This document shows positions 24,304-55,460 of a stretch of DNA of 64,000 nt, piece after piece. The translations under genes were made by a program, and so were the position numbers. The DNA lies in IMG/VR virus record IMGVR_UViG_3300035698_028676, positions 1,643 through 65,642 of that record. One strand, written 5' to 3'. The stretch is from a virus. Taxonomy: Duplodnaviria; Caudoviricetes. Under the pieces are notes generated by a model, which saw only the letters and a list, made by a program, of their open reading frames with translations, did no database searches and had not been told where the DNA came from. Within the stretch, counting starts at the first letter, position 1, and each line of letters opens with the position of its first letter.

Positions 24304-24307
24304 TAAT

Positions 24308-24673: not shown

Positions 24674-24680
24674 AAAATAT

Positions 24681-25562: not shown

Positions 25563-25581
25563 ATAGAAGGAGGAATAAAAT

Positions 25582-26867: not shown

Positions 26868-26925
26868 CTCATACCCTATAGAGAGAGTATGGTAAACTTT
26901 ATATTATTAGAATGGAGGTGTTTAA

Positions 26926-27258: not shown

Positions 27259-27305
27259 ACCTTAACGAATTTTTATTTTTTTATTTTTAAATTAAAACAA
27301 ACAAT

Positions 27306-30026
27306 ATGGAAAACGATAGTATAATTGACTCCAGGAATGCAAAGGCTTCAGCTATATTTAGTAATCCAAAGATTATCTTTCCAATAATTCTAATCCTTCT
27401 AATCATACTAGGTGTTTATATAAGAGCACTTCCTATGACTGACCATAATGGATTACCTGGTCTATGGGATCATTCAAAGAATGCCTGGACATTAGGCCCA
27501 GATTTGGACCCTTGGTCTTTTGTAAAGAACGCTAAAATAATAGCTCAGGGAAGCGGAATACCCGCTATAGATACTCTTAGGAATGTACCACTAGGGGTAG
27601 ATAACTCCAGGGAGACAATACTTCTACCATATATGATATATGGAACTTATCAATTAGTAAACCTATTTGGTACATTTAATATGGAATTTGCTGGGGCCTT
27701 ATTCCCTGTAATAATGTTTGGATTAACAATAATAGCATTCTTCTTATTTACTAGAGAGATATTCTTACATAGTGGAAAAACTAAGGCCAACATTATAGCA
27801 TCTATATCAACATTTTTCTTTACAATAACTCCCGCGCTATTACATAGAACTGTAGCTGGAATACCAGAAAAAGAATCTGCTGGATTTCTATTCATGTTTT
27901 TAGCATTTTATCTGTTCTTAAAATCTATAAAGGCAGGGAATATAAAGAGTGCTATATTATATGGATTCTTAGCTGGAGCTGCAACAACTATTATGAGATT
28001 TATATGGGGAGGAGCTGTATATATTTTTGGTGCAATATTTATGGCAGTTTTATTATCATTCTTATTTAATAAAGTAAATAGTAAATACTATGCAGCATAT
28101 AGTTCGTGGCTAATTACTACATGTTTAACTATGGTGATGTTCTCTAGTTGGTTTACTCTTGGTGGGTTGTTAGTATTATCATACACAAGTGTCTGTATCC
28201 TTCTTTGGTTTTTTCTGACTCTTCATATAATATTATGGAATACTAGACTATCGAATATAGGATTTATGAATACATTAAAGCAGAAATTACCAAAGAATAT
28301 CATTTCAATAATAATCTCTTTAATACTATTGATACCAATATCTCTGATTATATTTGGTCCAGATTTTATTTATGGTAAACTTAAAATAATATATGAACTT
28401 CTGTTTAATCCTATTACTGGAAGATGGAATACTACTGTAGCAGAGAATAGACCTCCATTCCTTGGAGAGTGGATGGGGAACTTTGGACCATTCATAGGAA
28501 ACTTACCAGTAATGTTTACATTGTTCATAACTGGGTCTGTTGTATTGTTTAAAGAGGCGTTAACTAATTTGAAGAAAAAGGATTCTGTTAGATTAACTAT
28601 TATATATTTGATATTATTAATGGGTATTACTTTCTCAAGAATAGCATCGACTAGTATATTCAATGGACAAAACTTTATAAGTAAACTATTCTTTATAGGC
28701 TCTATCTTATTTTTTATTATATCATTATTATATTATTCTATTAAATATATCAAAGAAGGTAATAATGGATTTAAAAAGATAAAGTTTGAATATATATTGG
28801 CAATATCATTATTTGTTCTTTGTTTATTGACAGTCCGTGGAGCCATAAGGTTGACAATGGTTCTAGCGTCGGTAGTACCAATCTTTGTTGGATACTTTGT
28901 TGTTAAACTAAGTTATTCTGTAAAAGATAATTTAACGTCTACTGATAATACAAGAAACAATAATACAGTTTTTGATAAAAGTTATATAAGTATATTCTTT
29001 CTAATAATAGTAATACTATCTAGCTTCTCAGTTGGATATACATTCTATAAAACATCTACATCTATAGCATATAGCATGGTGCCAAATTACTATAATATTC
29101 AATGGCAAAATGCTATGGGCTGGGTAAGAGATAACACAGAGGTTGATTCAGTCTTTGCTCACTGGTGGGATTACGGATACTGGGTACAGGCAATAGGAGA
29201 AAGGGCCACAGTAACAGATGGTGGTAATGTAATAACTTATTGGAATTATCTAATGGGTAGGCATGTGCTTACTGGAGATAATCAGGAAGACGCATTAGAA
29301 TTTTTATATAACCATAACGCAGATTATCTTTTAATTGATAGTTCAGATATAGGAAAATATGGTGCATATAGTAGCATAGGAAGTGATGGTAATTATGATA
29401 GATTCTCTACTGTATCTACGCTTCTAATGGACCCTCAACAGACACATGAAAATGGCAACTCAACTACATATTTTTATAATGGTGGCATGAATTTAGATGA
29501 AGATATAAATTATGAAATAAATGGAATATCATATTTCTTCCCACAATCGCAATCTGCTATTTATGGGATTATTATAACTGAAGGAAATAATACAATTGAA
29601 GGAGTTGATATATTAATAATAAACAAAGGAGTATTGACTCCTATACCATTAAGATACATCCAAAATGGAGATATGTATTATGATACTGGCAGTGGATTAA
29701 ACGGAACTGTAAAAACAATTACAAGAGTCGATGCTGCTGGAGTAGTACATCAGAATGGAGCATTACTATATATTTCTCCAAGAGTAACAAAAACTTTATT
29801 TTCTCATCTATACCTTTTAGATGACCCTACAAAAAAATTCCCTAATTTTGAACTCTCACATGCCGAACCAAACATAATGACTCAGGATAATAATATATTT
29901 TTTTATGATCCTATCGGCACTGTTGGGCCAATAAAAATATGGTCAATAAACTATTCTGGTGATGAAGAACTCAAAGAAGAATATATAGATATCGATTCTA
30001 CAAAATATCTAGATTGGAAGCTTTAA
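27306..30026 (+). CDS. aglB: Oligosaccharyltransferase AglB (STT3 family)
   Basis: DLDPW, PEKE, TVAEN (TIxE-like), HWWDYGYW, DIGK (DK motif), many TM helices. Confidence 0.95.
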   Translation: MENDSIIDSRNAKASAIFSNPKIIFPIILILLIILGVYIRALPMTDHNGLPGLWDHSKNAWTLGPDLDPWSFVKNAKIIAQGSGIPAIDTLRNVPLGVDNSRETILLPYMIYGTYQLVNLFGTFNMEFAGALFPVIMFGLTIIAFFLFTREIFLHSGKTKANIIASISTFFFTITPALLHRTVAGIPEKESAGFLFMFLAFYLFLKSIKAGNIKSAILYGFLAGAATTIMRFIWGGAVYIFGAIFMAVLLSFLFNKVNSKYYAAYSSWLITTCLTMVMFSSWFTLGGLLVLSYTSVCILLWFFLTLHIILWNTRLSNIGFMNTLKQKLPKNIISIIISLILLIPISLIIFGPDFIYGKLKIIYELLFNPITGRWNTTVAENRPPFLGEWMGNFGPFIGNLPVMFTLFITGSVVLFKEALTNLKKKDSVRLTIIYLILLMGITFSRIASTSIFNGQNFISKLFFIGSILFFIISLLYYSIKYIKEGNNGFKKIKFEYILAISLFVLCLLTVRGAIRLTMVLASVVPIFVGYFVVKLSYSVKDNLTSTDNTRNNNTVFDKSYISIFFLIIVILSSFSVGYTFYKTSTSIAYSMVPNYYNIQWQNAMGWVRDNTEVDSVFAHWWDYGYWVQAIGERATVTDGGNVITYWNYLMGRHVLTGDNQEDALEFLYNHNADYLLIDSSDIGKYGAYSSIGSDGNYDRFSTVSTLLMDPQQTHENGNSTTYFYNGGMNLDEDINYEINGISYFFPQSQSAIYGIIITEGNNTIEGVDILIINKGVLTPIPLRYIQNGDMYYDTGSGLNGTVKTITRVDAAGVVHQNGALLYISPRVTKTLFSHLYLLDDPTKKFPNFELSHAEPNIMTQDNNIFFYDPIGTVGPIKIWSINYSGDEELKEEYIDIDSTKYLDWKL

Positions 30027-34855: not shown

Positions 34856-35386
34856 TTAAACACTCCAAATACCTTCTCTTTTACCTACTGCGTAAAATAA
34901 TCCAATTCCAATTCCCATCAATGCTATCGCAAAGAATCCAGGAACCAAATTTATAATAGACCTATTCCATCCTTCAGTAAGGTAGTCTTCCTCACAGTAT
35001 TGATAAGTCGCAGTTGTAGTATTATATCCAGTGTCATTAACATTATCACTGTTATTAAATACTATCCCTCCCGTAGAGGCATTAAAAGTATAGTCAACAG
35101 CAGTCCATGTTACTGAGCCATTGTGTAAAATAAGTCCAGCGATAGGACATCCAGTAACTCTCCAAGTTGTTGGCACATTAGCTACATAGAATGTAGATCC
35201 TGGTATAATTTCCCCTTTACCATCTGCAGTTAGATTCCTAGCTGATTCATAACTTATATTCTCTCCAGAGATATTAACAGTATTAGTTAATGCGTTACCA
35301 GAAGTAGCGATTACTCCTAATAGAGAAATACCAATAATTAATGCGACAAAAGCGCTAACAAGTAAGCTTACATTTTCGTTTTCCAT
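34856..35386 (-). CDS. Two-hydrophobic-helix glycoprotein, candidate spindle-virus-type capsid protein
   Basis: N helix FVALIIGISLLGVIA, sequon-rich middle, C helix IINLVPGFFAIAL; SD GAAAGGGGGT. Confidence 0.6.
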   Translation of the reverse strand: MENENVSLLVSAFVALIIGISLLGVIATSGNALTNTVNISGENISYESARNLTADGKGEIIPGSTFYVANVPTTWRVTGCPIAGLILHNGSVTWTAVDYTFNASTGGIVFNNSDNVNDTGYNTTTATYQYCEEDYLTEGWNRSIINLVPGFFAIALMGIGIGLFYAVGKREGIWSV

Positions 35387-35460: not shown

Positions 35461-35718
35461 TCATTCCTTTTCACCATCCGCAAAATCTCTTAAACTCCCA
35501 ACCGTAGCAAATTCTCTTTCCATTCTAATCTTCCATTTACTACTAGGATCATGTTGCTTCTTCCTATTCATAGGTTTACAATCGTACTTATTCTTAACTC
35601 CATCATTGTCCCAATCACCCATTGGTTTCAGTCTAGGGTTAGCCCACTTAGCTTCAGCCCAATTCATCTTCCTTCTATCTTTTGGTTTCTTTATATCAAA
35701 TATCTTTATCATTTCCAT
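35461..35718 (-). CDS. Basic protein with GDxDxDGVKNxxDCKP motif (paralog 4)
   Basis: MNWAEAKWANPRLKPMGDWDNDGVKNKYDCKPMN. Confidence 0.75.
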   Translation of the reverse strand: MEMIKIFDIKKPKDRRKMNWAEAKWANPRLKPMGDWDNDGVKNKYDCKPMNRKKQHDPSSKWKIRMEREFATVGSLRDFADGEKE

Positions 35719-35719
35719 A

Positions 35720-36019
35720 TTATTCTTCGTAGTCATACTCGTATGACCCAACATTTTTAGCTCCTTGTTTTTTTAATAGTTTCTTTGCAGACTTTAGTTC
35801 TTCTTTCCCATGGACAAGATACTCTCCTGCTTGGCTATAAACCATATGATATTTTCCTTTTCCTTGCATCTTTCTATTCATTGGCTTACAATCGAATTGA
35901 TTCTTAACTCCATCATTATCCCAATCACCCATCGGTTTTAATTTAGGAAATTTATGTTTAGCTTGTGCCCAGTTCATATTCTTTCTATCCATTGGTTTCT
36001 TTATTTTTATAAATTCCAT
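35720..36019 (-). CDS. Basic protein with GDxDxDGVKNxxDCKP motif (paralog 3)
   Basis: MNWAQAKHKFPKLKPMGDWDNDGVKNQFDCKPMN. Confidence 0.8.
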   Translation of the reverse strand: MEFIKIKKPMDRKNMNWAQAKHKFPKLKPMGDWDNDGVKNQFDCKPMNRKMQGKGKYHMVYSQAGEYLVHGKEELKSAKKLLKKQGAKNVGSYEYDYEE

Positions 36020-36020
36020 A

Positions 36021-36464
36021 TTATACGTTCGCTCCTTCTACATTTCTTAAATGCTCTATTGCTTCTTTCTTAGTAAATCCCCAGTCTTCTTTCATCATTC
36101 TTATTCTTTCTTTAGTTTCTGTATCAACATCCTGCCTTTTTCTATTCAAAGGTTTACAATCAAACATATTCTTAACTCCATCTCTATCTTTATCACCCAT
36201 AGGTTTAAGCTTAGGATACTTCCATTTAGTTTGAGACCAATTCATATCCTTATCTTTCATAGGAGATTTAATTTTAAATGAAGGAATAGTCTTACTAAGT
36301 TTCCCTGCTTTAGAAATAGGTTTTAATAATGGGTTGCTATATCTTGCTTCTTCCCATTTATTATTTAGTCTCTTGGGTTTTCCAACTTTCAAGTTACCAA
36401 AGATAGGCGAAGCTGATTGCTTTCCCTTCTTCACTGTAGTCTTTATATCAAACATTGATTTCAT
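36021..36464 (-). CDS. Basic protein with GDxDxDGVKNxxDCKP motif (paralog 2)
   Basis: MNWSQTKWKYPKLKPMGDKDRDGVKNMFDCKPLN. Confidence 0.8.
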   Translation of the reverse strand: MKSMFDIKTTVKKGKQSASPIFGNLKVGKPKRLNNKWEEARYSNPLLKPISKAGKLSKTIPSFKIKSPMKDKDMNWSQTKWKYPKLKPMGDKDRDGVKNMFDCKPLNRKRQDVDTETKERIRMMKEDWGFTKKEAIEHLRNVEGANV

Positions 36465-36625
36465 TTCTTTTTATAAGTAAGTTTTGCAGATTTCATTGCT
36501 TCACTTAACTTAACTGATTTATTTTTTACTTTCATGTCGGCATAAACCTTTTTCAGGTGCACCTGCCATGGGTTAACTGTCTTAACCTTTATCTTCTCTG
36601 TTTTTATTTTAATTTTTTGTTTCAT
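36461..36625 (-). CDS. Small basic HMG-box-like DNA-binding protein
   Basis: NPWQVHLKKV...LSEAMKSAKLTYKK; SD GGAGGT sets start at MKQK. Confidence 0.6.
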   Translation of the reverse strand: MKQKIKIKTEKIKVKTVNPWQVHLKKVYADMKVKNKSVKLSEAMKSAKLTYKKK

Positions 36626-36654
36626 TTTTGTATTACCTCCGTTTAATTTAATTG

Positions 36655-37686
36655 TTATTGCGTCCACGACTCCGGTTGAGGTACTGGGACTAATGCCTTT
36701 CTACCAGTCATTAAGTCTTCCTGTAATCTATAGCCTGGAGGAATCCCTGATTTACTAGTTTGTTGTTGCGGCCTTTGCCCATATTTTTTTATACCTTGAA
36801 GTTGAACCTGTTGTATTTGCTGCGGCTGAACTTGCTGGACAACCTGAGCTGGTACCTGTTGAATTTGCTCTTCAATTATTTGAGTCTCTTGTATCGTTTC
36901 TATCGGTAATTGTTCTTCCATTTGCTTAGCCTCTTTTATTGCTCTTAGTCTAGCCATCTTAGCATTTATTTCTTCTTGAGCTGCAGCTACTTCTTCTGGA
37001 GATAATCCTCTTTTTGCTAAAGCAAATCTCTGAGAAACTTCTGCTTTAGTCTCTACGGCCTGAGCTTGACTTTTTAATTGCTTTCTTAGTCTATGATAAT
37101 CAACGGCAGATATAGGTCGACCTGTTCTTGGGTCTTTATATTTATATGATTGTTTTGGCCTTCCTGCACCAGCTTGTTTTTGCCCACTAGATGCTTTCCC
37201 TGCTTTTGCCTTAGTTCTTCCAACACCAGAAAATTTTCTAACTGTTCTAACTATCGCTCCTTGCTGTCTAGCCTTAGCTTGAGATATTTGTTTTTGAGTT
37301 GTAGGAGTTATTCTTCGTACAGCCTTCTCAGCTCCACTTGCAACCTTTTCTGATTTAGTCTTTACAGCCGCAACTACCTTATCTACACCCTTTGCAACAC
37401 CACCAATAAAACTACTAAATGCTCCATCCTTAGATGGGTCAAGTGGTTTACAATCCCTAGAATTAATTAACCCATCAAAATCAGCGTCTGCAGTTGGGCT
37501 CATATTTGGGAACTTTTTCTTTAGTTGTTTCCAATTCATCTGTCTTGTTTTGTTGACGGAATATATAGGACTAACTTTATTATTAGATATTCTATTATTT
37601 ATTGAAAAGACTAATGGGTTTTTTACAGGTACAACTCTCTTGACATTCTTGTTCTTATTCTTATAACTAAGTTTACGTTTAACCAT
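36655..37686 (-). CDS. Basic, Gln-rich protein with DxDxDGxxNxxDCKP motif (paralog 1)
   Basis: MNWKQLKKKFPNMSPTADADFDGLINSRDCKPLD; AGRPK; Q-rich tail; first gene after class B promoter. Confidence 0.8.
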   Translation of the reverse strand: MVKRKLSYKNKNKNVKRVVPVKNPLVFSINNRISNNKVSPIYSVNKTRQMNWKQLKKKFPNMSPTADADFDGLINSRDCKPLDPSKDGAFSSFIGGVAKGVDKVVAAVKTKSEKVASGAEKAVRRITPTTQKQISQAKARQQGAIVRTVRKFSGVGRTKAKAGKASSGQKQAGAGRPKQSYKYKDPRTGRPISAVDYHRLRKQLKSQAQAVETKAEVSQRFALAKRGLSPEEVAAAQEEINAKMARLRAIKEAKQMEEQLPIETIQETQIIEEQIQQVPAQVVQQVQPQQIQQVQLQGIKKYGQRPQQQTSKSGIPPGYRLQEDLMTGRKALVPVPQPESWTQ

Positions 37687-37749: not shown

Positions 37750-40700
37750 TTAATAGTCATATACAAATATCTCCTCTGGTTCACTGCTTCTTCCCATGAA
37801 TAATTTAAAAATCATAGTTAAGATTAATAACAATAATATACCAGGTAATATCTTAATTATAGCTCCTTGTAATATATCATCTGCATATTTAAAATATACA
37901 TAAGCTACTTCAATAGTAGTTCTATCTCTAGCATCATTAATAAGAACAAATGTTCCAGTGTCTTCGTCTACAGAGTAATCAAACAAATCTATTAATGTAA
38001 TATCTATATCATCATCACCCCATGCTGCTTCCTCTATTGTACCATTGTTACTATTCCCAGATATATCATACGCTACATCTCCAGTCCCAGCATTTAGATT
38101 AAATACTCCTGTTAAATTTGATAAGTACCATATCGAAATATTTATACCCCAATGCTCCTCTGCAGCTGTATAGTTGTCGTTTCCATCATATGTTACATTA
38201 AAATAATAACTACCAAGCTCAAAGTCTGTTATATTAAATAATGGTGGTGAACCAGAATTGATTAATGAGTTGTCTAGATACATTTTTATATCTCCAAGCC
38301 CAATATTTAAACTTCCATTTAGATATTCATTCTTCGCAGTAAGATTATTACCTAAATAATTTGCTCTTAAGTTTCCTACATAAGCATATACTTCTGCAGT
38401 CGCTTTACTTATGATTAACGTAAATGAATCTATGCTCGCATTGGCAGTATAATTCTCCCCACCAGTAGAGTTATAAATATAATAATAAGTCCCAGCACCT
38501 AGCATTGTGTTATCTGGATTAGATACTGTAACATTATCTCTATATAATATATATGTTACATCACTATCATTATTATTTGTTTCATTGGCTGTTATGTTTG
38601 CTAATGAAGTATAGTTTATTGGTGAAGTCCCAGTTATAGAACCAGCCAAAGTTGCCTTATTAATAACAATTGTAAAGTTAGCATAAGCAGATGTATAGTT
38701 TGCATTCCCAGGAGTAGAATAGTTACCTGTAATAGATCCTGCTGCATAGATTCCATTCGATATATCAAGGGTGCATACAAGCTCTGCGGGGCATCCTGAG
38801 CCAATAAAATCAGTATCTGTGCCATATACTATAGGAGTTGTCGCATTAAGCGTTAAAATTGGTATGTTCTTGCTTATTGTATATGTCCCTGTCTCAGAAT
38901 TATTGAAGTTCCCAACTGAATCATTAGCAAACCATCTATAATTATAGACCCCAACTGAAAGATTTAAGAAGCTTACATTGAATATATCCGCTGACATATT
39001 TGTTGCAGTGTAATTTATCTCGTTAAATTCAAATAGAACGGTATCTAAGTTGCTGCTATCTGTTATTGTAGAGTTAAACCCATAGATTACAGTTTGAGAA
39101 TAATTTGTTGGGTCACTTGGATACTCAGTTAATATTGTAATATTAGGAGGTAATGAATCTATTGAGAATGTAACAGTTGTCGTATTAATATTATTATCAC
39201 TATCATTAACCCACATCTGCCAAACAGATATACCTTCTCCTGGACTAAGCCCAACTACATTATTACCGCAAACTATAGTTGTGTTAACTAGGCCACCATT
39301 TAATGAATACCAACAAGTATTAAGATTCGTATCTGTAGCTGTATAGTTAAGTTCAGTAACAGTTGATTTATAAATGGCATTATTAATTGGGTAGTCTATA
39401 GTTATGCCTGGATTTACATTGTCACTAACAGTTAATGTCTGAGCATCCATACTGGAATTGTAAGTCCAATTTTGTCCAGCTGTATTATTTAATACATAGT
39501 AATAGACACCATAAGATGGGGTCCATGTTTCACCTGTACCGATAGAGACATTATCTTTAGATATAATATATACCACATCATCATCTCCTACTTGAGATTC
39601 ATCTAATCCAATTGTTATTTCTTGAGTCTCATTAATAGCCCAACCTAAAGTTGAGGTTAAGTTCCCCTCTGGCATTGCCTTATTTATTATATAAGATGTT
39701 GTGTTTGTGCTTCCTGTATAATTAGCAGTCTCAGTATAGGAACAATTGAAAGTACTTGTACCTGCAGCTATAACTATTGGGCTTCCTGATGATATAACTG
39801 CCCCATTAAAATCTAATACTGCCGGGCCATCTCCTGAGAGTACACTACATGTTGGAGTTATAGCTGTTCCATATGTCTGTGGTGATGCTATATCAAATGT
39901 TAAAGATGTTTGCGATGCCGCTTTATTTACCGTGTAACTTCCTGTAGCGCTATTATTTACATTCCCTGCAGTATCATTAGCAAACCATACATAGTTATAG
40001 GTCCCAGCTGATAGATTAGTTAAGCTAACATAGAAATTATCACTGATATTGCTAGCACTATAATTTATACCATTAAATGTTAATATAATATTATCTAAAG
40101 GACTATCTGCATCTGAAACTGTAGCATTAAAACTATAAATTGTACTGCTAGAGAATGTTGCGGGGTCAGCTGGGTATTCAGTTAGAGCTGTAACTGCAGG
40201 TGGCATTGTATCTACAAAGAAAGTCGTAGTTGTTGTGTTAATGTTGTTATCGCTATCGTTAGCCCATACCCGCCAGGTTGTCCAACCCTCTCCTGAATTT
40301 AATCCAACTACGTTATCACCACAAGTTACAGTAGTATTTGCCAATCCTCCATTTAATGAATACCAACAGGTGTTAAGATTTGTATCTGTAGCTGTATAGT
40401 TTAACTCAGTTACCGCTGCATCATAGCTTGAACCATTAACTGGGTAATCAATAGTTATTCCTGGATTTATATTATCACTAACGGTTAAAGTTTTAGTATC
40501 CATACTAATATTCTCAGTCCAATTCACACCACCAGTAGTATTTAAAACATAATAATAAGTTCCGTAAGATGGAGTCCAAGTTTCACCTGTAGCTTTTGAG
40601 ACATTGTCTCTTGAAACTATATAAACTACATCTGCATCTCCACCTTGAGATTCAGTTAATCCAATTGTTACCTCTTGAGTTTCATTTATAGTCCAACCTA

Positions 40701-42912
40701 ATGTTGAGGTTAAACTACCTTCCGGTATTGCTTTGTTAATCGTGTAGCTTCCAGATTCAGTATTATTTATACCACCAATACTATTGTTAGCGAACCAACT
40801 ATAATTATACACTCCAACTGATAGATTAGCTATATTGGCATAGAAGTTACTGCTAATATTACTAGCTGTATAATTAGTCCCATTAAAAGTTAATACTACA
40901 TCATCTATACTACCTATGTCTGTAACAGTAGTATTAAACTGATAGATTGTTGATTGTGAGAATGTTGCTGGGTCAGCTGGGTATTCTGTTAATGATGCAA
41001 CATCTGGTGAGTATACAACGCTTGAAGATGTTAAATTAACTTTAGTTGTATTTACAGTTCCATCTCCAGCCCAAACTTGTGCTATTAATATATCTCCTCC
41101 GCTGAAATTTCCACTATCTAATGTTCCTATTAATGAGGTAGTACCATTGGTTACAACCTGAGACTGCTCTGCACCTGCAGCTGTACCGTTAACATAGAAC
41201 TGGACATAACCAGTTAATGTATCTGCGATATCTGTATCTTCAATTGTTAGGTTCACTAGATAATCTGTATTGGTATGAACTATATCTGGCTTTGTTGCGT
41301 TTGCTGTTATGTTTGGGGGGTTGTTTGCTTCAAACGGATAAGCAAAACCATCTCCATCTGCCCAGAGATTTTCCACTTCTGTTGAGTTTAATACTCTTGA
41401 CCATATTCCTATTTCATCAAGTTTACCCTCTAATAAATCTGAAGTATGCCATCCAGAACTTACGGCAAATTGTAAATTAGCTGAAGATGAACTTATTGTT
41501 GTAGAACCGGAACCCGTTGCCACACCATTTATATAAAAAACAATAGAACCACTATCCGCAGTTACGACTAAATGATTCCACGAATTTTCTATTAAAACAC
41601 TGGTAGAATTAGAAAGAACATTAGCTCCTCCTGTACCAAAAAATCGCACCGTTCCATTATCATCATTTACCAACGTAAGTTCATATCCAACTGCAGCGAC
41701 TGGAGGTCTATTGGATAAAATTCTATCGTATTTAGTTTTAAATGTAGGATTTATCCACAAAGAAAAAGTGAAATCTGAAGAAGTGATAAAGTTAAAATCA
41801 CTTGCCTCGTTAGTATCTAGATAATCCCCATAGTCTTCGCCATTAAAATCATAAGCCTTACCAATTTTTCCGGCTACATTAATAGTTGCACCATAATTAG
41901 TACCATCGTTAGAACCATGAGCATCATTAACAGTTGTTCCAGAAGCCTCATCTAACTTATAATAAGAAATTAAATCAGTAACCAAATAACTAGCCCATTC
42001 ATAAATATTAAAACCTTCGATAGTCGGAATAAATTCTACATACTCACCAGAAATAGTATCAGTGAACAATCCAATAATAATATTCTTATGTGGCAACTCC
42101 TTCACTTTGCTAAATTCAATCCATTCTTTACCTATATAACTATGGCATTCCTCTGCATTTGCATTTTTCAAAGTTTTCTTATCTGCTTTTGCAGCATCAT
42201 AACAATCTGTAACTTCAGTCTCAACTAAATATTTCCAAGTATAATCTTTATCTTTTATTTTATAATTATCTTTAAGATCATAGTAATCTATTTTCTCAGG
42301 GAACTTAACTTTATTATCCCAATCTACTAATAACCATTCAGCAACCATAACACTCTCTCCAGACTGAACCTCATTGTTGTATGGTGTTAATAATTCCATA
42401 TCTAATAATATCTTATCATCAGAAAAAGTCAACTTCTTGCTATCTGTGACATATGTCTTAGTAATTCCATCATATGTATTTGTATTATCATTTTTTCTAA
42501 TAGAATCAATATATCCTTTGTCTTTAATTTTACTCAATGTATCTCTCATATCAAATTCATAGATATCAGAATTATCCCCAATATGAAGTTTAAATCTATC
42601 CTCATTAGAATAATCATAAATTATAATTCTATCATCTCCAATTGTGTATCTGTCATCTGACATTCCATCTATCCATACATTATCTTCGTTTGTGGAATAT
42701 TCAATTATTAAATTATTGTTATTAATATAAGAGTTTATGTTAGAATCAATATTGATATCATCTTCCATCTGAATACAACTTACTTCTTCTGTGTTAAAAT
42801 TACTGTATAGAAAAAATACAGATGCTATTACGATAATAGCTCCTATACTTAAAGTTAATAATTTGCTCTTATTCGTACTCGATCGTACGTGCTCATTTCG
42901 TTCACCTTCCAT
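37750..42912 (-). CDS. 1720-aa surface/virion glycoprotein (LamG domain, Ig-like repeats, N- and C-terminal TM)
   Basis: LamG: LISYYKLDE..G...FSLWIN..WNHLVVT..GKLDEIGIW; repeated Ig-like units; dense NxS/T. Confidence 0.85.
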   Translation of the reverse strand: MEGERNEHVRSSTNKSKLLTLSIGAIIVIASVFFLYSNFNTEEVSCIQMEDDINIDSNINSYINNNNLIIEYSTNEDNVWIDGMSDDRYTIGDDRIIIYDYSNEDRFKLHIGDNSDIYEFDMRDTLSKIKDKGYIDSIRKNDNTNTYDGITKTYVTDSKKLTFSDDKILLDMELLTPYNNEVQSGESVMVAEWLLVDWDNKVKFPEKIDYYDLKDNYKIKDKDYTWKYLVETEVTDCYDAAKADKKTLKNANAEECHSYIGKEWIEFSKVKELPHKNIIIGLFTDTISGEYVEFIPTIEGFNIYEWASYLVTDLISYYKLDEASGTTVNDAHGSNDGTNYGATINVAGKIGKAYDFNGEDYGDYLDTNEASDFNFITSSDFTFSLWINPTFKTKYDRILSNRPPVAAVGYELTLVNDDNGTVRFFGTGGANVLSNSTSVLIENSWNHLVVTADSGSIVFYINGVATGSGSTTISSSSANLQFAVSSGWHTSDLLEGKLDEIGIWSRVLNSTEVENLWADGDGFAYPFEANNPPNITANATKPDIVHTNTDYLVNLTIEDTDIADTLTGYVQFYVNGTAAGAEQSQVVTNGTTSLIGTLDSGNFSGGDILIAQVWAGDGTVNTTKVNLTSSSVVYSPDVASLTEYPADPATFSQSTIYQFNTTVTDIGSIDDVVLTFNGTNYTASNISSNFYANIANLSVGVYNYSWFANNSIGGINNTESGSYTINKAIPEGSLTSTLGWTINETQEVTIGLTESQGGDADVVYIVSRDNVSKATGETWTPSYGTYYYVLNTTGGVNWTENISMDTKTLTVSDNINPGITIDYPVNGSSYDAAVTELNYTATDTNLNTCWYSLNGGLANTTVTCGDNVVGLNSGEGWTTWRVWANDSDNNINTTTTTFFVDTMPPAVTALTEYPADPATFSSSTIYSFNATVSDADSPLDNIILTFNGINYSASNISDNFYVSLTNLSAGTYNYVWFANDTAGNVNNSATGSYTVNKAASQTSLTFDIASPQTYGTAITPTCSVLSGDGPAVLDFNGAVISSGSPIVIAAGTSTFNCSYTETANYTGSTNTTSYIINKAMPEGNLTSTLGWAINETQEITIGLDESQVGDDDVVYIISKDNVSIGTGETWTPSYGVYYYVLNNTAGQNWTYNSSMDAQTLTVSDNVNPGITIDYPINNAIYKSTVTELNYTATDTNLNTCWYSLNGGLVNTTIVCGNNVVGLSPGEGISVWQMWVNDSDNNINTTTVTFSIDSLPPNITILTEYPSDPTNYSQTVIYGFNSTITDSSNLDTVLFEFNEINYTATNMSADIFNVSFLNLSVGVYNYRWFANDSVGNFNNSETGTYTISKNIPILTLNATTPIVYGTDTDFIGSGCPAELVCTLDISNGIYAAGSITGNYSTPGNANYTSAYANFTIVINKATLAGSITGTSPINYTSLANITANETNNNDSDVTYILYRDNVTVSNPDNTMLGAGTYYYIYNSTGGENYTANASIDSFTLIISKATAEVYAYVGNLRANYLGNNLTAKNEYLNGSLNIGLGDIKMYLDNSLINSGSPPLFNITDFELGSYYFNVTYDGNDNYTAAEEHWGINISIWYLSNLTGVFNLNAGTGDVAYDISGNSNNGTIEEAAWGDDDIDITLIDLFDYSVDEDTGTFVLINDARDRTTIEVAYVYFKYADDILQGAIIKILPGILLLLILTMIFKLFMGRSSEPEEIFVYDY
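39145..40740 (-). repeat. Internal ~180-aa duplication in the 1720-aa protein
   Basis: INKA(I/M)PEG.LTSTLGW.INETQE...CWYSLNGG...NDSDNNINTTT occurs twice (approx. 40200-40740 and 39145-39690). Confidence 0.85.
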
Positions 42913-43438
42913 TTAATAGTAACTCTGATAACTGAGACTGATTCATTGTATCATTATAAAATTTAATTGTATCTATACTTCCCTCAAAAAATCCTGATTC
43001 ATTAATACCAAAATACCATCCAGTAGCATTCTTCTTAAATGGATTTATAGTTAAGTTGCCTACAGTGTTATTCCCTTCATAAATTAAATCAGATGAGTTA
43101 GTTATCATTATCCAATCACTACCTGAGGTGTTTGCCCAAAATACAACCGATACATAATCATAATCTGGGATAAATAGATAATCATCTATACCATCAAAGT
43201 CTAACCATGTACTATTTTTAGTTGTAACTACTGTTGATTTTATTCCATCACCTATTGGAGATAAAACTGTATTAGAACTAGTTGTTACTAAAAATGAATT
43301 TGTATCAGAATACTCATTCTCTGCCCTTGAGTTATCATACACATCTGGGATAATTCTAAATAATAATATAAATAATATTAACGCTATCATTGATACTATT
43401 ATATAAAGAACTGCGTTGCCTTTTTTGTTTATTCTCAT
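42902..43438 (-). CDS. Pilin/capsid-like N-terminal helix plus incomplete LamG domain
   Basis: MRINKKG|N class III-like signal; WLDFDGIDDY...FEGSIDTIKFYN..SQLSELL. Confidence 0.75.
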   Translation of the reverse strand: MRINKKGNAVLYIIVSMIALILFILLFRIIPDVYDNSRAENEYSDTNSFLVTTSSNTVLSPIGDGIKSTVVTTKNSTWLDFDGIDDYLFIPDYDYVSVVFWANTSGSDWIMITNSSDLIYEGNNTVGNLTINPFKKNATGWYFGINESGFFEGSIDTIKFYNDTMNQSQLSELLLNGR

Positions 43439-48125: not shown

Positions 48126-49133
48126 ATGAATCTATTAGGTAAAGAAATAAATTGGAATAATCCTGCCGAGGTCAAGGAATATGAAAGAAAACGTAGGGAG
48201 GTTAATGTAGAACAAATAAAAGCTACAAAAAAAGCATACTACAAAAAAAATAAAGATAGATTGGTTATTAAAAATAAAGATAATTATGAAAAAAATAAAG
48301 GTAAGATAGCAATTCAAAGCAAAAAGTATAGAAAAGAGAATAAAGAGAAAATAAAAATTCAGAGGAGAAAATATAGAGAAAAGAATAAAGAGAAAATAAA
48401 AATTGACAAAAAAGAATATTACAAAAAGAATAAAGATAAGATAGCTATTAAGGAGAAAGAACATTATAAAAATAATAAAGATGAGATTAATGCTTCTAGT
48501 ATAAAGTATTATAAAGAGAACAAAAATCATATAAGAATTAAAAGTAAGGAATATTACAAAAAGAATAAAGATAAGGTATTAATTCAGTGCAAAAAATATC
48601 GAAAAAATAATAAAGAAATAGTAGCTATTAAGGAGAAAGAGTATTATGAAAAAAATAAAGATAAGGTATTAATTCAGTGCAAAAAATATCAAAAAAAGAA
48701 TAAAGATAAGATAGCAATTCAAAGTAAAAAATATTATAAAAACAGTAAAAAAAATATATGTATAGTATGTGGGGAACCGCACGCCTTAGATAAATTTTGC
48801 TCAAAAAAATGCATGGGAATTTATTGGACTGGAAAAGGACATCCGTTATGGAAAGGCGGACCAGCTCCTTATCCTACAGCATGGACAAGGAAATTTAAGA
48901 AATCAATTAGAGATAGAGATAATAATAAGTGTATGAGATGTGATAAGCCAAGAGAAGTCTTAGGACAGGCTTTATGTGTTCATCATATTGATGCCATTAA
49001 AGAAAATACATATCCAGAGAACTGCATCTCTCTTTGTCGTGCCTGCCATGGATTAACTGTAGGTAGAGAACACCTTTTTACTGAAGGTTTTAGAAAGATG
49101 CTATCTAAAAGATTTGGATATAAATATACCTAA
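48126..49133 (+). CDS. HNH endonuclease with Lys/Tyr-rich helical repeats
   Basis: ~15-aa KxYYxKNKDKI repeats; CxxC..FCSxxC; IRDRD..C..C, VHHID...NCISLC..CH. Confidence 0.85.
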   Translation: MNLLGKEINWNNPAEVKEYERKRREVNVEQIKATKKAYYKKNKDRLVIKNKDNYEKNKGKIAIQSKKYRKENKEKIKIQRRKYREKNKEKIKIDKKEYYKKNKDKIAIKEKEHYKNNKDEINASSIKYYKENKNHIRIKSKEYYKKNKDKVLIQCKKYRKNNKEIVAIKEKEYYEKNKDKVLIQCKKYQKKNKDKIAIQSKKYYKNSKKNICIVCGEPHALDKFCSKKCMGIYWTGKGHPLWKGGPAPYPTAWTRKFKKSIRDRDNNKCMRCDKPREVLGQALCVHHIDAIKENTYPENCISLCRACHGLTVGREHLFTEGFRKMLSKRFGYKYT

Positions 49134-49973: not shown

Positions 49974-52900
49974 TCATATCCATTTTACCCTACCAACTTT
50001 TTTTGTTTGTGACTTTCTTTTCTTAATACCTTTAGCTGTGATAGCAGCGAACTCTCCCTTTGTAGATATTCTAGCTTTTCTTTTCTGGATGAATGTTGAT
50101 GGCTTTTTGACTTCTTTACCTTTTACTATTCTGCCCCTGTATTCTTTCTTAAGTTCAGCTCTAGATATTGGGGCCAGATTTAGTGTACCTTCAATTCCTT
50201 TCCCCTTCTTTAATCTAAATGAAACTGATGCATCGGATTTTGTTTCTTTTCTACCTAAAGCTAAAGCTTCCCCTTCTGATAATGCGAATGGAGTTACATC
50301 TTCCCACTTCCCTCCTCTTTTAACTTCAACTTCATAACCTCGTTTAACTTTGGTCTTTGATTTAGTTTTGGGGATTCTAACTTTTACTTTCCCTAAATCA
50401 GGTATAATTATAACTGGAGGTACTGGTTTTGGTGGAGATGGCGACGGGCTTGGCGATGGTGAAGGCGAAGGACTAGGGCTAGGACTAGGACTTGGGCTTG
50501 GACTTGGACTAGGTGATGGACTAGGAGAAGGACTAGGACTAGGAGAAGGACTAGTAGTTATGCTAGGACTAGGTGAAGGACTAGGTGAAGGACTAGGTGA
50601 AGGTGAAGGACTAGGGCTTGGACTAGTAGTTATACTAGGACTAGGCGAAGGGCTAGGAGAAGGTCTAGGTCTAGGGGAAGGAGAAGGTGATGGCTTAAAC
50701 TTAATTACAGGAGAAGGACTAGATACTGAAGATATTTTAATTAGTGAAGAAGGACTAGCCGCAGTTGAAGGCCTAGTGCTAGGAGAGCTTAAAGTAGATG
50801 TAGTAATTTTCGCCTCTGAAGGAATAGTTATTGGACTAACAACACGTCCAGTAAATGAAGTTTTTACAGGAGTCTTCAATGAGCTAGTAACATCAATTTT
50901 TATTCCAGATAAATATGCAGCCCTACTAGTATCAAGTTCTCCAAACAATGTCCCTACATCTTCCGCAGCCCAATCTAATTTTCTATATTTTTCAAATAAT
51001 TTATCTGCCCTTACCCCTTCAGCCTTAGTCCCAACTGTAGGATTAAAAACTTTGCTTTCTGCTAAACTTTTACCTATGGCGTAAGTATCAACAACATCTT
51101 TAGAACGATGCATAGGTGGCTCTATTATCTTCTTTCCAGTTAAAGGATCTTCCCACCAAGTGGCAGAAGCTCCAGCCTTTCTTATTAACTGTTCATATTC
51201 TGTTTGAGAAGCAACTCCTTCAACCTTTGTAGTAGGTCTATATTCCTCAAATCCATATCTGAAACCTTTAGATAATTCTACTAAAGAAGTAGGATCATCA
51301 TGATATTTTAATTCTATGCTCTTCTCTCCTTTAACATAAACTCCCATACCTTGTGCATCATCTATTACTTCAGCAGTACTAGAACCTTTCCTTCTTAATT
51401 CCTCTGCAGCCTTTTCTCCCCATTTCCCAGCAGCAGTCTTAGAATTAAATTCTATTTCAATATCTCCAGGGGTTCTTTTAAACTCTAATTTTCTTTGAGC
51501 AATATCTGAGAAAGAACCATAAACTCTTTCATATGCTCCTTTATCTTTTTTCAAAAGTTTAAGTACAACCTTAATTTCATCTTTATCTAATGATTTAGTC
51601 TCTGTAGGAAACTTTTCTAAAAAACTACTTTTCTGCTCTCTTAGTAAATTTAATACATCTTTAGTTATTTCTATCTTTTTTATACCTTGAGTACTGACCC
51701 CTAAAGCCTTTAGCACAGGTTTTTGAGTTAATACTTCTGCTTCTAATGCAGTCCCTGGATAACTAGCAATATTTTTCTTAGACCATTCTGGGAATGCCAT
51801 TCTTTTTACACCTGGTAATTTTTCTACTCCTGGAGTTCCAATTGCAACCCCTCTTTTAGTCCATCCTATTAAAGGTTTTACTACCCCCTCTTCTGGCTCA
51901 AGATAAAACCCCCTATAAAGAGATTCAGGTTCGGTAAATCTCGCAGCCTCAATCATTTCTACATCTTTTACCGCTTTAATAGTTTTTGGGAGTAAAGGAG
52001 ACTCTGTACGAATAATTGCCTTTTTATCTGTAAGAATTTGTTGATAATCCCTGACCCTTATGCCATCTACTTCTTTTATAACATCTAATCTTTGTCCTCT
52101 GTATCCTATATCAACAACATCTGTTTTAGTGGCTGTATCGACAATTTTAACCTGTCTACCAGTATTATCTATTTTTAAAACATTAGGATCTTTACCCTCG
52201 GCCTTATAGTTCTTTCTAGCTATTCTTAAAGCTTTCTTCGCAAACTCCCCAACTTTTTCTTTTACTAAAAAATAAACATCGGCATCACCAGGATTTCTAA
52301 AACTTCCTTTTGGAAGTTGCATTTTGACTGCCGCAGTACCTCCTAAATATCCTCCTTCCTTAGTAGCTGCCTTCGCCACATCTAATTGTAATTTATTTAA
52401 TGTATCTAATGCCCTTGGCACTTTAACCTCAACATTACCATACTTCAAAAACTTTCCTGCTCCAGAGGCACCAACCCCCATAAGAACAAAATCTTTTGCG
52501 GCAGCTCCAGTCATTTTTCCCGCTTGAAAATAATCTTCTGCATCTCTTACATTTTTATATGTCTCTGCTCCATAAGTAACACCAAATCCTACTCCTGCTC
52601 CTAAAGTTCCAACATCTGCAGCAACACCTGCAACTTGAGCACCTTTTGTTCCAGCAACGAGCCCACCTACTGTTCTAAATCCAAGACCTGCAGCCTTTAC
52701 TCCAACCCCTAACCCATAACCTGCACCAATAAGAGCGACTTGTTTTAATGGTTTTTCTATAACATCCTCTGCAATCCCTATACCAACTCCAGTTATAAAA
52801 CCACCACCTTTAGCGACTACCTCAGGAACTCCTTTGTCAAGAAACGACGCTGTTGTCTCTTCAGATTTTATGGCTGCTTCCTCAAATGTAGTTGGTAAAT

Positions 52901-55460
52901 CTAGGCCTGTTTGTGTTTCCACTACAGTCATACCAGTTCCAAATCCCTTTGCAAATGGATCTGTTATCCCTCCCCTAAGCCCTTCGCTTATATCACCAAA
53001 AAAGCCTGGTATCTCTTTTGCTGTTTTAACTATCTTATCAGCTGCAACTGCAGGTCCAAGATAAGCTGCTTCAGTATAAGGTTTAGCTGCATCTTGAATC
53101 CTTTCATTTGCTAAAAGTGGGGCTAATGCCGTATCTATTACAATAGGAGCTACTGTTTCTTTTATTACTGGAGCTACGACTTCAGTTATCTTATCAGCTG
53201 CAACTGTAGTCCCAAGATAAGCTGCTTCGACATAAGGTTTAACTGCATCTTTAATTATACTTCCAGTTAACATAGAGCCCAAAGCTGTTTCTTTTATCAA
53301 TGGGGTTACGACTTCAGCTATCTTATCGGCTGCAATTGAAGGTCCAAAAAAAGCTGCTTCAGTATAAGGTTTAGCTGCATCTTTAATTACACTTCCAGTT
53401 AACATAGAACCTAAAGCTGTCTCTTCTATTACTGGAGCTACTACTTTACTTATCTTATCAGCTGCAACTGAAGGTCCAAGATATGCTGCTTCAACATAGG
53501 GTTTAGCTGCATCTTTAATTACTCTCCCAGTTAACATAGAACCTAAAGCTGTCTCTTTTATAGCTGAAGCTGTTACTTCAGTTATCTTATCAGCTGCAAG
53601 TGAAGGCCCAATGAAAGCTGTTTCAGTATAAGGTTTAGCTGAATCTTTAATTATTTTTGCAACTGAAAGTGAACTAATAGCCGTTCCTTTTATAGCTGGG
53701 ACTATTGTTTCCTTAATAACTACTCCAGCTTCTTTAATTAATGGAACCGCTTTCTCTTCAACCCTTTTTCCTAACGATAATATAGATGTTGCTTTTTTTT
53801 CTACTGCACCTGCTACTGTTGTTCCAATATAATCTAAAGCATCTGCTCTAGCTTCTCCAACACCTGCTGTAAATTCTTTGACTGATGGGATTACCTTTTC
53901 TTTAATAACTACTCCAGTTCCTTTGATTACTGGAGCTACTTTTTCCTTAACATCTTTTCCTAAAGATAAAACAGATGTTGCTTTTTCTTCAACTGCATCT
54001 ACTACTGTAGTCCCAATGTAGCTCAATGTATCTGATCTAACTTTTCCAAACTCTTTGATTACTGGAATTACCTTTTCTTTAATAACCGGAGCTACAACTT
54101 CAGTTATTTTATCAGCCACAATTGAAGGTCCAAGATATGCTGTTCTAGTATAAGGATTAGCTGCTTCCCTGACTGCACTTGCAGTAGAAATAGATCCTAT
54201 AGCGGTATCTCTTATAACTGGAGCTACTATTTTCGCAACTCTTCCACCCAAAGATATACTTTCTGCCGTATCCGCAACTTTTGTTCCAATATAGTCTAGG
54301 GTATCTGCCCTTGCTTCTCTTATTGCTGGAATTATCTTTTCCTTATTAACCCATGTCTCTGCGGCTACAACTGACAAAGCACCAGTAGCTGCACCTAATC
54401 CTGCACCTAATGTTTCACCACTACCTTTTAAAACATCTTTAATAACCTTTGCCCCTATTTCATTATACGCCTGTGGATTATAAAGTTTCCTATTTGTAAA
54501 TGGAGTATAGACATCTCTTCCAGTTCCTGGAGTTGGTCTTCCTCCTTCGAACATCTCTCCATAAGTTTCTCTTGGTGTATTTCCGGTAAGCCTCTCCCAT
54601 TGAGCAGCAGGAAAATTTGTTATCTTTTGTATTATAGTTTTTTTAGGAGCAGCTTCAACTGACCATTGTGGGGCAGAAGGTAAAGGTGTTTTTTTAAATA
54701 ATTCTGGATGAGATAATGCAAAGGCCGCCTGTCTATCTTGTGACATCTCTATTCCCTGTCTACCTACTGCTACAGGAATCTGAGTAGCCGTAGCAAGATC
54801 TGGAGAAGCTAAAGATTGCAATTCACCAGTAAGAACATCTTTATATGCAACCTGTGGCGCATCAAATTGTTGTCCATATCTTTCTTGTAAGCCCTCTAGA
54901 GACATGCTCGCCTGATCTGGCCCACCTGAAACACCAACAAGTTGTCCTTTATCATAAATAAGATTAAACCCAGCCTCATTTAAATTTGATTTAAATTCGG
55001 ACAAATCGCCCCGAGCCAACTTCTGTTCTGTTCTCATTTGAGAATCTCTTGGCGACCAATCTGTTGTTGTTCCATATGGTGTAGAATATTCGTAGCCTAA
55101 TACTTGCGTTACGTAGCCCTTCCCTAACTTTCCCATAATCGCCCTTGGAGCTATCCCTTTCTCTTTGGCATATTGCATTATCCCGGCAGGAGTTTTTTTA
55201 AATTCTTCAATTCTTTGTCCATAAGAAGCAACTTGTTCTTCATCTTGCGCTGCTTGTTGTGATTGTCCTGCTAACCTTTCTCTTTCAGACCTAACTGCCT
55301 GTTTCTTGGGAACTCCAGCTATTCCCTTTATAGCCCTAAGTGCCCTTTGTGTTCTTGTCTCAGGCAAAGCCGCCTGTCTAGATGCTATACCAGATTGAGC
55401 TCTAGCTATACCTTCTCTACTAGCTGCTACTTGAGCTTGTGCTTCCTGAATACTAACCAT
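49974..55460 (-). CDS. 1828-aa multidomain protein: amphipathic repeats, hydrophobic helices, two nucleotidyltransferase-like domains, (SP)n linker, basic tail
   Basis: GPSxAADKI repeats; YLGGTAA...RNPGDAD and VYGSFS...RTPGDIE motifs; long Ser-Pro run. Confidence 0.8.
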   Translation of the reverse strand: MVSIQEAQAQVAASREGIARAQSGIASRQAALPETRTQRALRAIKGIAGVPKKQAVRSERERLAGQSQQAAQDEEQVASYGQRIEEFKKTPAGIMQYAKEKGIAPRAIMGKLGKGYVTQVLGYEYSTPYGTTTDWSPRDSQMRTEQKLARGDLSEFKSNLNEAGFNLIYDKGQLVGVSGGPDQASMSLEGLQERYGQQFDAPQVAYKDVLTGELQSLASPDLATATQIPVAVGRQGIEMSQDRQAAFALSHPELFKKTPLPSAPQWSVEAAPKKTIIQKITNFPAAQWERLTGNTPRETYGEMFEGGRPTPGTGRDVYTPFTNRKLYNPQAYNEIGAKVIKDVLKGSGETLGAGLGAATGALSVVAAETWVNKEKIIPAIREARADTLDYIGTKVADTAESISLGGRVAKIVAPVIRDTAIGSISTASAVREAANPYTRTAYLGPSIVADKITEVVAPVIKEKVIPVIKEFGKVRSDTLSYIGTTVVDAVEEKATSVLSLGKDVKEKVAPVIKGTGVVIKEKVIPSVKEFTAGVGEARADALDYIGTTVAGAVEKKATSILSLGKRVEEKAVPLIKEAGVVIKETIVPAIKGTAISSLSVAKIIKDSAKPYTETAFIGPSLAADKITEVTASAIKETALGSMLTGRVIKDAAKPYVEAAYLGPSVAADKISKVVAPVIEETALGSMLTGSVIKDAAKPYTEAAFFGPSIAADKIAEVVTPLIKETALGSMLTGSIIKDAVKPYVEAAYLGTTVAADKITEVVAPVIKETVAPIVIDTALAPLLANERIQDAAKPYTEAAYLGPAVAADKIVKTAKEIPGFFGDISEGLRGGITDPFAKGFGTGMTVVETQTGLDLPTTFEEAAIKSEETTASFLDKGVPEVVAKGGGFITGVGIGIAEDVIEKPLKQVALIGAGYGLGVGVKAAGLGFRTVGGLVAGTKGAQVAGVAADVGTLGAGVGFGVTYGAETYKNVRDAEDYFQAGKMTGAAAKDFVLMGVGASGAGKFLKYGNVEVKVPRALDTLNKLQLDVAKAATKEGGYLGGTAAVKMQLPKGSFRNPGDADVYFLVKEKVGEFAKKALRIARKNYKAEGKDPNVLKIDNTGRQVKIVDTATKTDVVDIGYRGQRLDVIKEVDGIRVRDYQQILTDKKAIIRTESPLLPKTIKAVKDVEMIEAARFTEPESLYRGFYLEPEEGVVKPLIGWTKRGVAIGTPGVEKLPGVKRMAFPEWSKKNIASYPGTALEAEVLTQKPVLKALGVSTQGIKKIEITKDVLNLLREQKSSFLEKFPTETKSLDKDEIKVVLKLLKKDKGAYERVYGSFSDIAQRKLEFKRTPGDIEIEFNSKTAAGKWGEKAAEELRRKGSSTAEVIDDAQGMGVYVKGEKSIELKYHDDPTSLVELSKGFRYGFEEYRPTTKVEGVASQTEYEQLIRKAGASATWWEDPLTGKKIIEPPMHRSKDVVDTYAIGKSLAESKVFNPTVGTKAEGVRADKLFEKYRKLDWAAEDVGTLFGELDTSRAAYLSGIKIDVTSSLKTPVKTSFTGRVVSPITIPSEAKITTSTLSSPSTRPSTAASPSSLIKISSVSSPSPVIKFKPSPSPSPRPRPSPSPSPSPSITTSPSPSPSPSPSPSPSPSPSPSITTSPSPSPSPSPSPSPSPSPSPSPSPSPSPSPSPSPSPSPSPPKPVPPVIIIPDLGKVKVRIPKTKSKTKVKRGYEVEVKRGGKWEDVTPFALSEGEALALGRKETKSDASVSFRLKKGKGIEGTLNLAPISRAELKKEYRGRIVKGKEVKKPSTFIQKRKARISTKGEFAAITAKGIKKRKSQTKKVGRVKWI
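50430..50700 (-). repeat. Ser-Pro dipeptide repeat tract
   Basis: PSPSPS... with varied codons, interrupted twice by ITT. Confidence 0.9.

Follow-up and report, generated by a model that had tools for sequence, protein, structure and literature searches.

Overall, we lean, with a little more confidence than doubt, towards the view that the products of two overlapping genes of a virus, which we treat as archaeal and uncultivated, make up a two-part, N-glycosylated adhesin whose synthesis is translationally coupled, the two-gene equivalent of single-chain, double-anchored proteins found elsewhere in the same family. The genes lie on the minus strand of a 64,000-nucleotide stretch, hereafter the window (positions 1,643 to 65,642 of IMG/VR virus record IMGVR_UViG_3300035698_028676, a linear record of 65.6 kb with a CheckV completeness of 35%). 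Gene 1 encodes a protein of 178 amino acids (aa) and gene 2 a giant of 1720 aa, and both open reading frames (ORFs) stand exactly where an earlier note, made from the sequence alone, had placed them (Table 1). That note proposed a single capsid-like gene with a laminin G-like (LamG) domain, split by insertion of an adhesin, whose halves would be reunited by strand complementation in trans or by frameshifting. Our data retain much of what was seen in the sequence, and lead to a different account of how the two products are related.

The product of gene 1 has the N-terminal hydrophobic helix and the LamG-like motifs (FDGIDDY and GSIDTIKFYND) that had been recognized in it. A local hidden Markov model (HMM) built from eight bona fide LamG_3 domains matches every member of the gene 1 family (E 1e-10 to 4e-3, and 8e-5 for the window's protein; full-sequence E-values in a 32-sequence database), the match running from position 38 to position 196 of the HMM with some 35 positions deleted, and alignment A1 pairs with the LamG alignment at an hhalign probability of 94.7. 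For the longer relatives (alignment A3), the comparison with canonical LamG reaches a probability of 99.7 (E 1e-26) and begins in a conserved linker (..SILADN..TLSPIGEGITS..N.SWLEFDG) that is collinear with the canonical N-terminal hairpin; the gene-1-type LamG is collinear with canonical LamG from the segment preceding FDG through to its end. The idea that gene 1 carries most of a LamG fold and then stops finds no support in these comparisons. Its domain ends where LamG_3 ends, with the canonical C-terminal motif GSIDTIKFYNDTMNQSQLSELL and the canonical C-terminus ...IDTIKFYNDTMNQSQLSELLLNGR, and the segment before FDG (SFLVTT...STVVTTKNSTWLDFDG) occupies the position of the hairpin. Because the domain has both this N-terminal segment and a canonical C-terminus, it appears compact and not truncated, with no strands missing, and strand complementation would therefore be unneeded for completion of the fold. 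ESM Atlas features, which we use as a lead only, also put the domain near LamG_3 clusters (score 0.89); these neighbours are archaeal, and their most frequent label is Microcaldota.

Judged by sequence similarity, gene 1 belongs to a large family of stand-alone proteins of about 175 aa. A word-indexed search returned 24 relatives (149-201 aa, 52-100% identity), a 22-row alignment has a mean column identity of 66%, and an exhaustive profile search gave 863 matches at E<=1e-3. We classified 172 proteins, comprising the 24 first matches and 148 more from the top-150 list. Stand-alone proteins of at most 210 aa make up 77 of the 172 (including four fragments of 77-148 aa), and 62 of these 77 end in GR; 26 are mid-type proteins of 211-320 aa, eight are single chains with a C-terminal transmembrane (TM) helix, and 61 are generic LamG_3 proteins that lack the N-terminal match. 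The mid-type proteins (P0062 to P0178, from many clusters) have a peculiarity of their own: 23 of the 26 end a residue or a few past a hairpin with the motif SGNGNxG, at the point where the single chain P0177 continues, a strikingly precise and recurrent stop. P0177 is 37-41% identical to two mid-type proteins, in alignments that reach within two or three residues of their ends. Scans of viral contigs with the 178-aa protein and with A1 gave generic LamG tail-fibre loci or nothing, and the scan with A3 gave one true relative, locus L007, among the 80 loci kept.

The giant encoded by gene 2 has three giant relatives (1602-1694 aa) with typical signal peptides ending ...NVSA; the C-terminal 161 aa of these proteins are 66-72% identical, their N-terminal parts differ, and the mean column identity of the gene 2-type alignment is 58%. 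Between an internal LamG_3 domain and the C-terminus lie tandem super-modules with 64-83% DNA identity between copies, an arrangement typical of expandable adhesin stalks. Inverted repeats that might hint at an invertible cassette were limited to short, weak, AT-rich pairs.

The last 105 residues or so of the giant form what, as judged from the alignments, is a distinct and conserved C-module: an orphan LamG-type hairpin, a small beta domain and a TM helix. The hairpin was detected with an independent HMM, whose only input was the hairpins at the C-termini of 19 mid-type gene-1 proteins and which, across 311 window ORF segments and 12 other proteins, matched at two sites, both in gene 2 (aa 312-337, independent E-value (iE) 4.5e-4; aa 1607-1625, iE 4.9e-5). 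The hhalign comparison of the C-module with the terminal hairpin of the mid-type proteins in A3 agrees (probability 95.8, E 7e-9). A whole-domain LamG HMM gave 0-2 bits on the giant's last 135 aa, so that detection came only from the short, hairpin-specific model, and when the 178-aa and 176-aa proteins were each compared with the giant by plain BLASTP, no significant match emerged. The earlier note had placed the missing LamG strands of gene 1 at this end of gene 2; a LamG-type N-terminal hairpin is indeed there, and the part of the claim that goes unsupported is that it is missing from the 178-aa protein. We also considered the mini-domain that follows the hairpin as a LamG remnant and set this aside, the comparison of the C-module with canonical LamG being too weak (hhalign probability 25.6). 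Residues P1690, G1691, R1708, E1713, Y1718 and Y1720 are invariant in the four giants. The acidic, aromatic tail beyond the TM helix (37753-37794, minus strand) ends in Y-x-Y in all four, and may be a contact for internal virion proteins. An archaeosortase signal of the PGF-CTERM type was considered for the arrangement of ...LPG/PGFF, TM helix and basic residues, but neither the 1720-aa protein, whole or as its last 133 aa, nor the 176-aa protein had an NCBIfam match to such a signal (E<=1).

The uninterrupted homologs that the earlier note called for do exist. Eight single chains open like the 178-aa protein and close like the giant: P0137 (364 aa), P0177 (381), P0073 (517), P0046 (578), P0155 (621), P0061 (641), P0133 (700) and P0141 (859). 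Their N-termini match the small-family profile, with an anchor, linker and LamG domain at that end and a hairpin, mini-domain and TM helix at the other; none of the eight has an internal hydrophobic segment, and in P0137 and P0177 the hairpin comes immediately after the N-anchored LamG. As a non-circular test we used an HMM made from the last 140 aa of the single chains only. It matched the window's giant at aa 1599-1702 (62.8 bits, E 6e-19) and the three other giants too, and no other window ORF below E 0.01 among 314 sequences; conversely P0177, left out of the first C-module HMM, scored 72.5 bits against that HMM. By homology with these eight chains, in which both end modules are joined, each ORF of the window supplies one end of a common architecture, and the adhesin body lies in between.

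The single-chain forms are also dispersed over the family phylogeny, which was computed quickly by maximum likelihood from 84 N-terminal regions. Two rows on which the trimming rule failed were dropped, and five single-chain rows were over-long, their extra columns being removed by the 40% fill filter. The distribution of the eight forms takes eight changes, at least four of them forced by starred branches, and P0046, P0061 and P0177 each fall inside two-gene clades with 95-98% support. This scatter means that, on the tree, fusion or fission has been repeated in the family; the tree is unrooted and so does not set fusion apart from fission.

In the five loci for which we have genomic context (the window, L004, L005, L006 and L007), the small and giant genes are adjacent with overlapping stop and start codons in every case, and this layout persists down to about 36% identity. 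Gene 1 of L004 and L005 is 63-67% identical to that of the window, and the neighbouring genes are kept. In L007, part of a virus record of 26 kb that is complete and bears terminal repeats, gene 1 is of the mid type (301 aa), and gene 2 (484 aa when read from the ATG at 10860) runs from a signal peptide through a LamG domain to the C-module. Small and giant proteins were also recovered from contigs of matching lengths (76,503 and 37,006). At the junction itself, the 11-nucleotide (nt) overlap in different frames described in the earlier note, ATGGAAGGTGA, and the CG-rich character of the site, in the form of a CpG-rich GAGCACGTACGATCGAGTACG directly downstream of the overlap, are both as reported. 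Overlaps of 11 nt occur in four of the loci (the window; L004 and L005, both with aATGGAAGGTAA; and the distant L007, with ATGGAATTTAA), and we consider this stop/start overlap a likely site of translational coupling.

The proposal that the two ORFs are fused by programmed ribosomal frameshifting at the overlap finds encouragement in the change of frame and in the existence of single-chain homologs, but it is contradicted by the following observations, and we judge it very improbable. Gene 2 has its own ATG and its own hydrophobic signal or anchor, and a fusion would leave this second helix in mid-chain, whereas the single-chain relatives have no such internal segment; it would also place the sequon-rich giant, with its 78 sequons, on the cytoplasmic, wrong side of the membrane. 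The overlap is 4 nt (ATGA) in L006 and 11 nt in the other four loci, so a different shift would be needed. The junction stop codon is variable (TGA or TAA), no conserved slippery site was found across the loci compared, and the CpG-rich stretch is absent from L004 and L005. The junction RNA has a minimum free energy of -10.4 kcal/mol and folds worse than shuffled sequence (z +1.19, with 185 of 200 shuffles folding at least as well). Slighter still is the chance of an artefact, be it an assembly or sequencing error or the recent disruption of one gene: it has nothing more than the overlap itself in its favour, and against it the two-gene layout recurs in independent contigs from different sources and both genes are strongly conserved, with the mean column identities given above.

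A more substantial rival, which we hold to be the lesser prospect but by no means a negligible one, is that the genes are independent neighbours: functionally separate lectins or adhesins derived from paralogs, which form no complex, the single chains being products of ordinary domain shuffling. Stop/start overlap is frequent between unrelated neighbouring genes, the LamG of gene 1 is complete by itself, and gene 2 of L007 is a complete protein from signal peptide to TM helix. Mid-type gene-1 proteins, moreover, already have a hairpin copy of their own; the pair could therefore be neighbouring paralogs, one of them minus the C-terminal anchor, without any partnership. This is the first of several points that weigh against a two-part adhesin. 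The genomic context comes from five loci only, four of them fairly close relatives. Pfam gave no match on the 178-aa protein at E<=0.1, the PF13385 gathering score not being reached (PHROGs and NCBIfam likewise gave none), and a PDB sequence-profile search with A1 returned chance-level matches only (E >= 0.14). The E-values from local HMM and hhalign analyses were calculated for single comparisons or for databases of very small size. Lastly, such leads to the host as there are point only to DPANN archaea; a genome-contig profile search with alignment A5 gave two weak C-terminal matches, in contigs titled Pacearchaeota and Mycoplasmatota, neither of which contains the family. What tells against independence is that adjacency and overlap are kept in all five loci, down to about 36% identity, and that the tree requires no fewer than four separate unions of these two end-modules in a single chain.

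A stronger version of partnership would revive strand complementation in altered form. The giant's hairpin would augment or complement the 178-aa LamG by a beta strand and close a two-piece, doubly anchored loop, a model that we think rather unlikely. In P0137 and P0177 the hairpin directly follows the N-anchored LamG; in 23 of the 26 mid-type proteins it is a C-terminal extension of that LamG; and the giant's hairpin is homologous to that extension. Since the hairpin adjoins this LamG whenever both share a chain, docking in trans keeps a small probability. Set against this, the small LamG has its own N-terminal segment and a canonical C-terminus, with no strand missing, and by profile comparison the C-module and the small family are dissimilar (hhalign probability 0.01). 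The related conjecture, that the orphan hairpin is a docking element which binds the 178-aa LamG in trans, and perhaps in cis in the single chains, to give a non-covalently closed, doubly anchored adhesin, is to our minds doubtful as well, if by a hair less so. Were it true, a constant small base would carry an exchangeable giant cassette, and the repeated fusion and fission would be the trace of an interface.

Regardless of whether the hairpin docks, the two-part adhesin remains the account we favour, and we infer a physical association of the products from the conserved adjacency, the conserved junction and the repeated fusion. The general pathway can be outlined as follows. Two separately translated but coupled genes in a surface-glycoprotein module of the virus would yield, first, a small protein anchored in the membrane, whose LamG lectin domain is compact and complete, and, second, a giant secreted adhesin in which an N-domain and a LamG_3 domain are combined with Ig-like repeats. 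The C-module, with its hairpin, small beta domain, TM helix and acidic/aromatic tail, would hold the adhesin in the membrane or virion. A virus-encoded AglB pathway would N-glycosylate both products, and the stop/start overlap would set a fixed ratio between them. Together at the membrane, they may act as base and fibre of a host-attachment complex, whose large middle part would be the exchangeable, host-specific portion.

Table 1. Features of the gene pair and related elements in the window (nt positions in the window; aa positions in the respective protein).
Feature	Position	Strand	Basis or remarks
Gene 1, 178 aa	42902..43438	-	ORF; N-terminal signal-anchor helix, linker of ~35 aa, compact LamG_3-type domain ending ...LLLNGR
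Hydrophobic helix of gene 1, ~aa 9-29	43352..43414	-	Read from sequence; kept in alignments A1 and A4
Compact LamG-like domain of gene 1, ~aa 47-178	42905..43300	-	Local LamG HMM, hhalign
11-nt stop/start overlap, ATGGAAGGTGA	42902..42912	-	Gene 1 ends ...N G R stop; gene 2 begins M E G
Gene 2, 1720 aa	37750..42912	-	ORF; predicted giant sequon-rich surface protein, 78 NxS/T
N-terminal hydrophobic segment of gene 2, aa 18-36	42805..42861	-	Read from sequence; signal peptide or anchor
Internal LamG_3 with N-terminal hairpin, aa 312-520	41353..41979	-	Pfam PF13385 E 3e-22, aa 362-513; hairpin HMM aa 312-337
Immunoglobulin (Ig)-like super-modules, 2-3 tandem copies, period 1053 nt (351 aa)	38874..41009	-	Direct repeat families D1-D3
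Orphan LamG-type N-terminal hairpin, aa 1599-1631, NLTGVFNLNAGTGDVAYDISGNSNNGTIEEAAW	38020..38118	-	Hairpin HMM iE 4.9e-5
Membrane-proximal beta mini-domain, aa 1632-1687 (...IDITLIDLFDYSVDEDTGTFVLINDA...VAYVYFKY...)	37852..38019	-	Single-chain HMM; comparison with 176-aa family
C-terminal TM helix, aa 1688-1706 (PG 1690-1691 at its start), and acidic/aromatic tail	37753..37851	-	Alignment of four giants
176-aa double-anchored protein	34856..35386	-	C-terminal half (DYTF..STGGIVFNN...ATYQY...NLVPGFF-TM) related to the giant's C-module
N-glycosylation toolkit	12230-30026, especially 27306-30026	+	Appearance of a whole pathway from the encoded proteins

The C-module has a further relative within the window. 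The earlier note had observed that the giant's tail resembles the C-terminal half of a nearby 176-aa protein, and this holds: hhalign gives a probability of 93.4 (E 3e-7) between the C-module and the 176-aa family with the TM helix, and 80.5 (E 1e-5) without it, the related segment following the giant's hairpin as W-DD-IDITL---DYSV---G-F-L-N...Y-Y-TM. The further suggestion, that the joined halves would form a paralog of the 176-aa protein, is not supported, as they would resemble the single-chain LamG family and only the C-module is related; the 176-aa protein has no LamG, and its family is unrelated to the small family of gene 1 (hhalign probability 7.9). The 176-aa family has 40 members of 151-205 aa. 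Against PHROGs, phrog_5402, annotated 'virion structural protein', was matched by 15 of 24 aligned members (best E 2.6e-8) and phrog_11172 by 14 of 24, in matches that cover only the N-terminal hydrophobic residues 2-38; the 176-aa protein may be a virion structural protein. It had no Pfam match, and no tblastn match in deposited phage records. In L007, a 98-aa protein (18018-18311) has two hydrophobic helices and the motif NFTAGVD.VS.KIPT followed by a TM helix, and the same motif and TM helix occur in the C-terminus of the L007 adhesin (10860-12314) and in P0073. Given this common motif, the adhesin anchor of the L007 branch would be a copy of the terminus of a small protein, probably one of the capsid or membrane.

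The wider layout of the window is that of two halves. In the plus-strand half (1-34 kb) lie genes for an integrase, for radical-SAM enzymes and for a full sugar and N-glycosylation set, which includes an STT3/AglB-like protein of 906 aa, GT4 and GT2 glycosyltransferases, a PMT_2-like protein, sugar epimerases and dehydratases, a kinase-cytidylyltransferase and several methyltransferases. The products of the minus-strand half (34-64 kb) are membrane and surface proteins for which databases offer no name. The surface proteins have 4-9 sequons (NxS/T) per 100 aa, with 5.1 in gene 1 (nine sequons) and 4.5 in gene 2, against 0.8 in the 44 plus-strand ORFs. The maximum for the window, 30 sequons or 9.3 per 100 aa, is found in a 318-aa ORF (63030-63986, minus strand) with weak, sub-threshold matches to Annexin and LolA. 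At the other extreme, an ORF of 1828 aa (49974-55460, minus strand; no Pfam or PHROG match) has no sequon in the 1833 aa of its stop-to-stop segment and, unlike its glycoprotein neighbours, is probably an internal or cytoplasmic giant protein. Four adjacent genes at 35461-37686 (minus strand; 97, 99, 147 and 343 aa) have in common the basic motif MNW..K.K.P.LKPMGD.D.DGVKN.FDCKP.NRK.Q, the 343-aa protein having a long Q/K-rich tail in addition, and a comparable basic protein of 641 aa is encoded upstream of the gene pair in L007; these may be internal DNA-binding virion proteins. Endonuclease genes of the LAGLIDADG and HNH types are present on the plus strand at 2178-2876 and 48126-49133, and the position of the HNH gene within the structural module, on the opposite strand, suggests a mobile insertion.

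Archaeal viruses are already suspected of using LamG adhesins to attach to their hosts, and next to nothing is understood of the way the particle carries them. The family described here offers a concrete and testable architecture, in which an N-anchored lectin base and a C-module akin to a putative small virion protein flank a variable body, and which is realized either as one chain or as two coupled genes. If the pieces associate, an enveloped or lemon-shaped archaeal virus would have a route for swapping receptor-binding cassettes while leaving its anchors untouched, and the natural fused and split versions would be ready experimental controls. If they do not, the family would exemplify ordinary domain shuffling among viral surface proteins.

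Viruses of DPANN archaea with ConA/LamG proteins have been reported in groundwater (PMC11310336), and the literature consulted, its supplements excepted, contained no description of the double-anchored family or of a split LamG adhesin. In PAV1 and TPV1, lemon-shaped viruses of Thermococcales, the proteins PAV1-676/PAV1-678 are large, carry one or two LamG jelly-roll domains and have been proposed to function in host adhesion (PMC3603647). Like the window's proteins they are large, LamG-bearing proteins of archaeal viruses, a likeness that is one of description only, and the portion of that account drawn on here mentions no two-gene split, N-anchored small LamG partner or C-module. Among deposited phages, tblastn with P0177 gave LamG-level matches only, with none of 70 records covering at least 80% of the query. 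One match was to the LamG part of ORF42 (1656 aa; E 4e-9) of a Nitrosopumilaceae spindle-shaped virus (BK067787.1). ORF42 resembles gene 2 in its giant size, its LamG content, its C-terminal hydrophobic segments and its archaeal viral origin. Neither the C-module nor the terminal hairpin or N-anchor of the family is present in it (<=9 bits), and it is an analog rather than a member.

With PF13385 (Laminin_G_3), the domain of phage tail fibres and cell-surface proteins, the window's proteins have in common the motifs FDG-DDY and G-IDEVRIYN and the hairpin W-F-E-G-G-D-SGNGN-GT. The internal domain of the giant clearly belongs to this family. The 178-aa domain differs in being about 35 positions shorter and below Pfam detection, and the giant's second hairpin in standing alone as an orphan, with a mini-domain of non-LamG type and a TM helix after it. 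In the chaperone-usher pili, donor-strand complementation rescues an acceptor fold that is demonstrably short of a strand. The docking model would work in just this manner, a strand of one chain completing or extending the sheet of the other; unlike the chaperone-usher acceptor, however, the 178-aa LamG appears complete. Under the Rosetta stone principle of gene fission and fusion, two separate proteins are expected to cooperate if another genome encodes them as a single fused chain. The present case departs from such pairs in that the variable body travels with the C-terminal piece, and in that fusion or fission has happened several times; it resembles them in that single-chain homologs have counterparts of the window's two ORFs as their N- and C-terminal portions.

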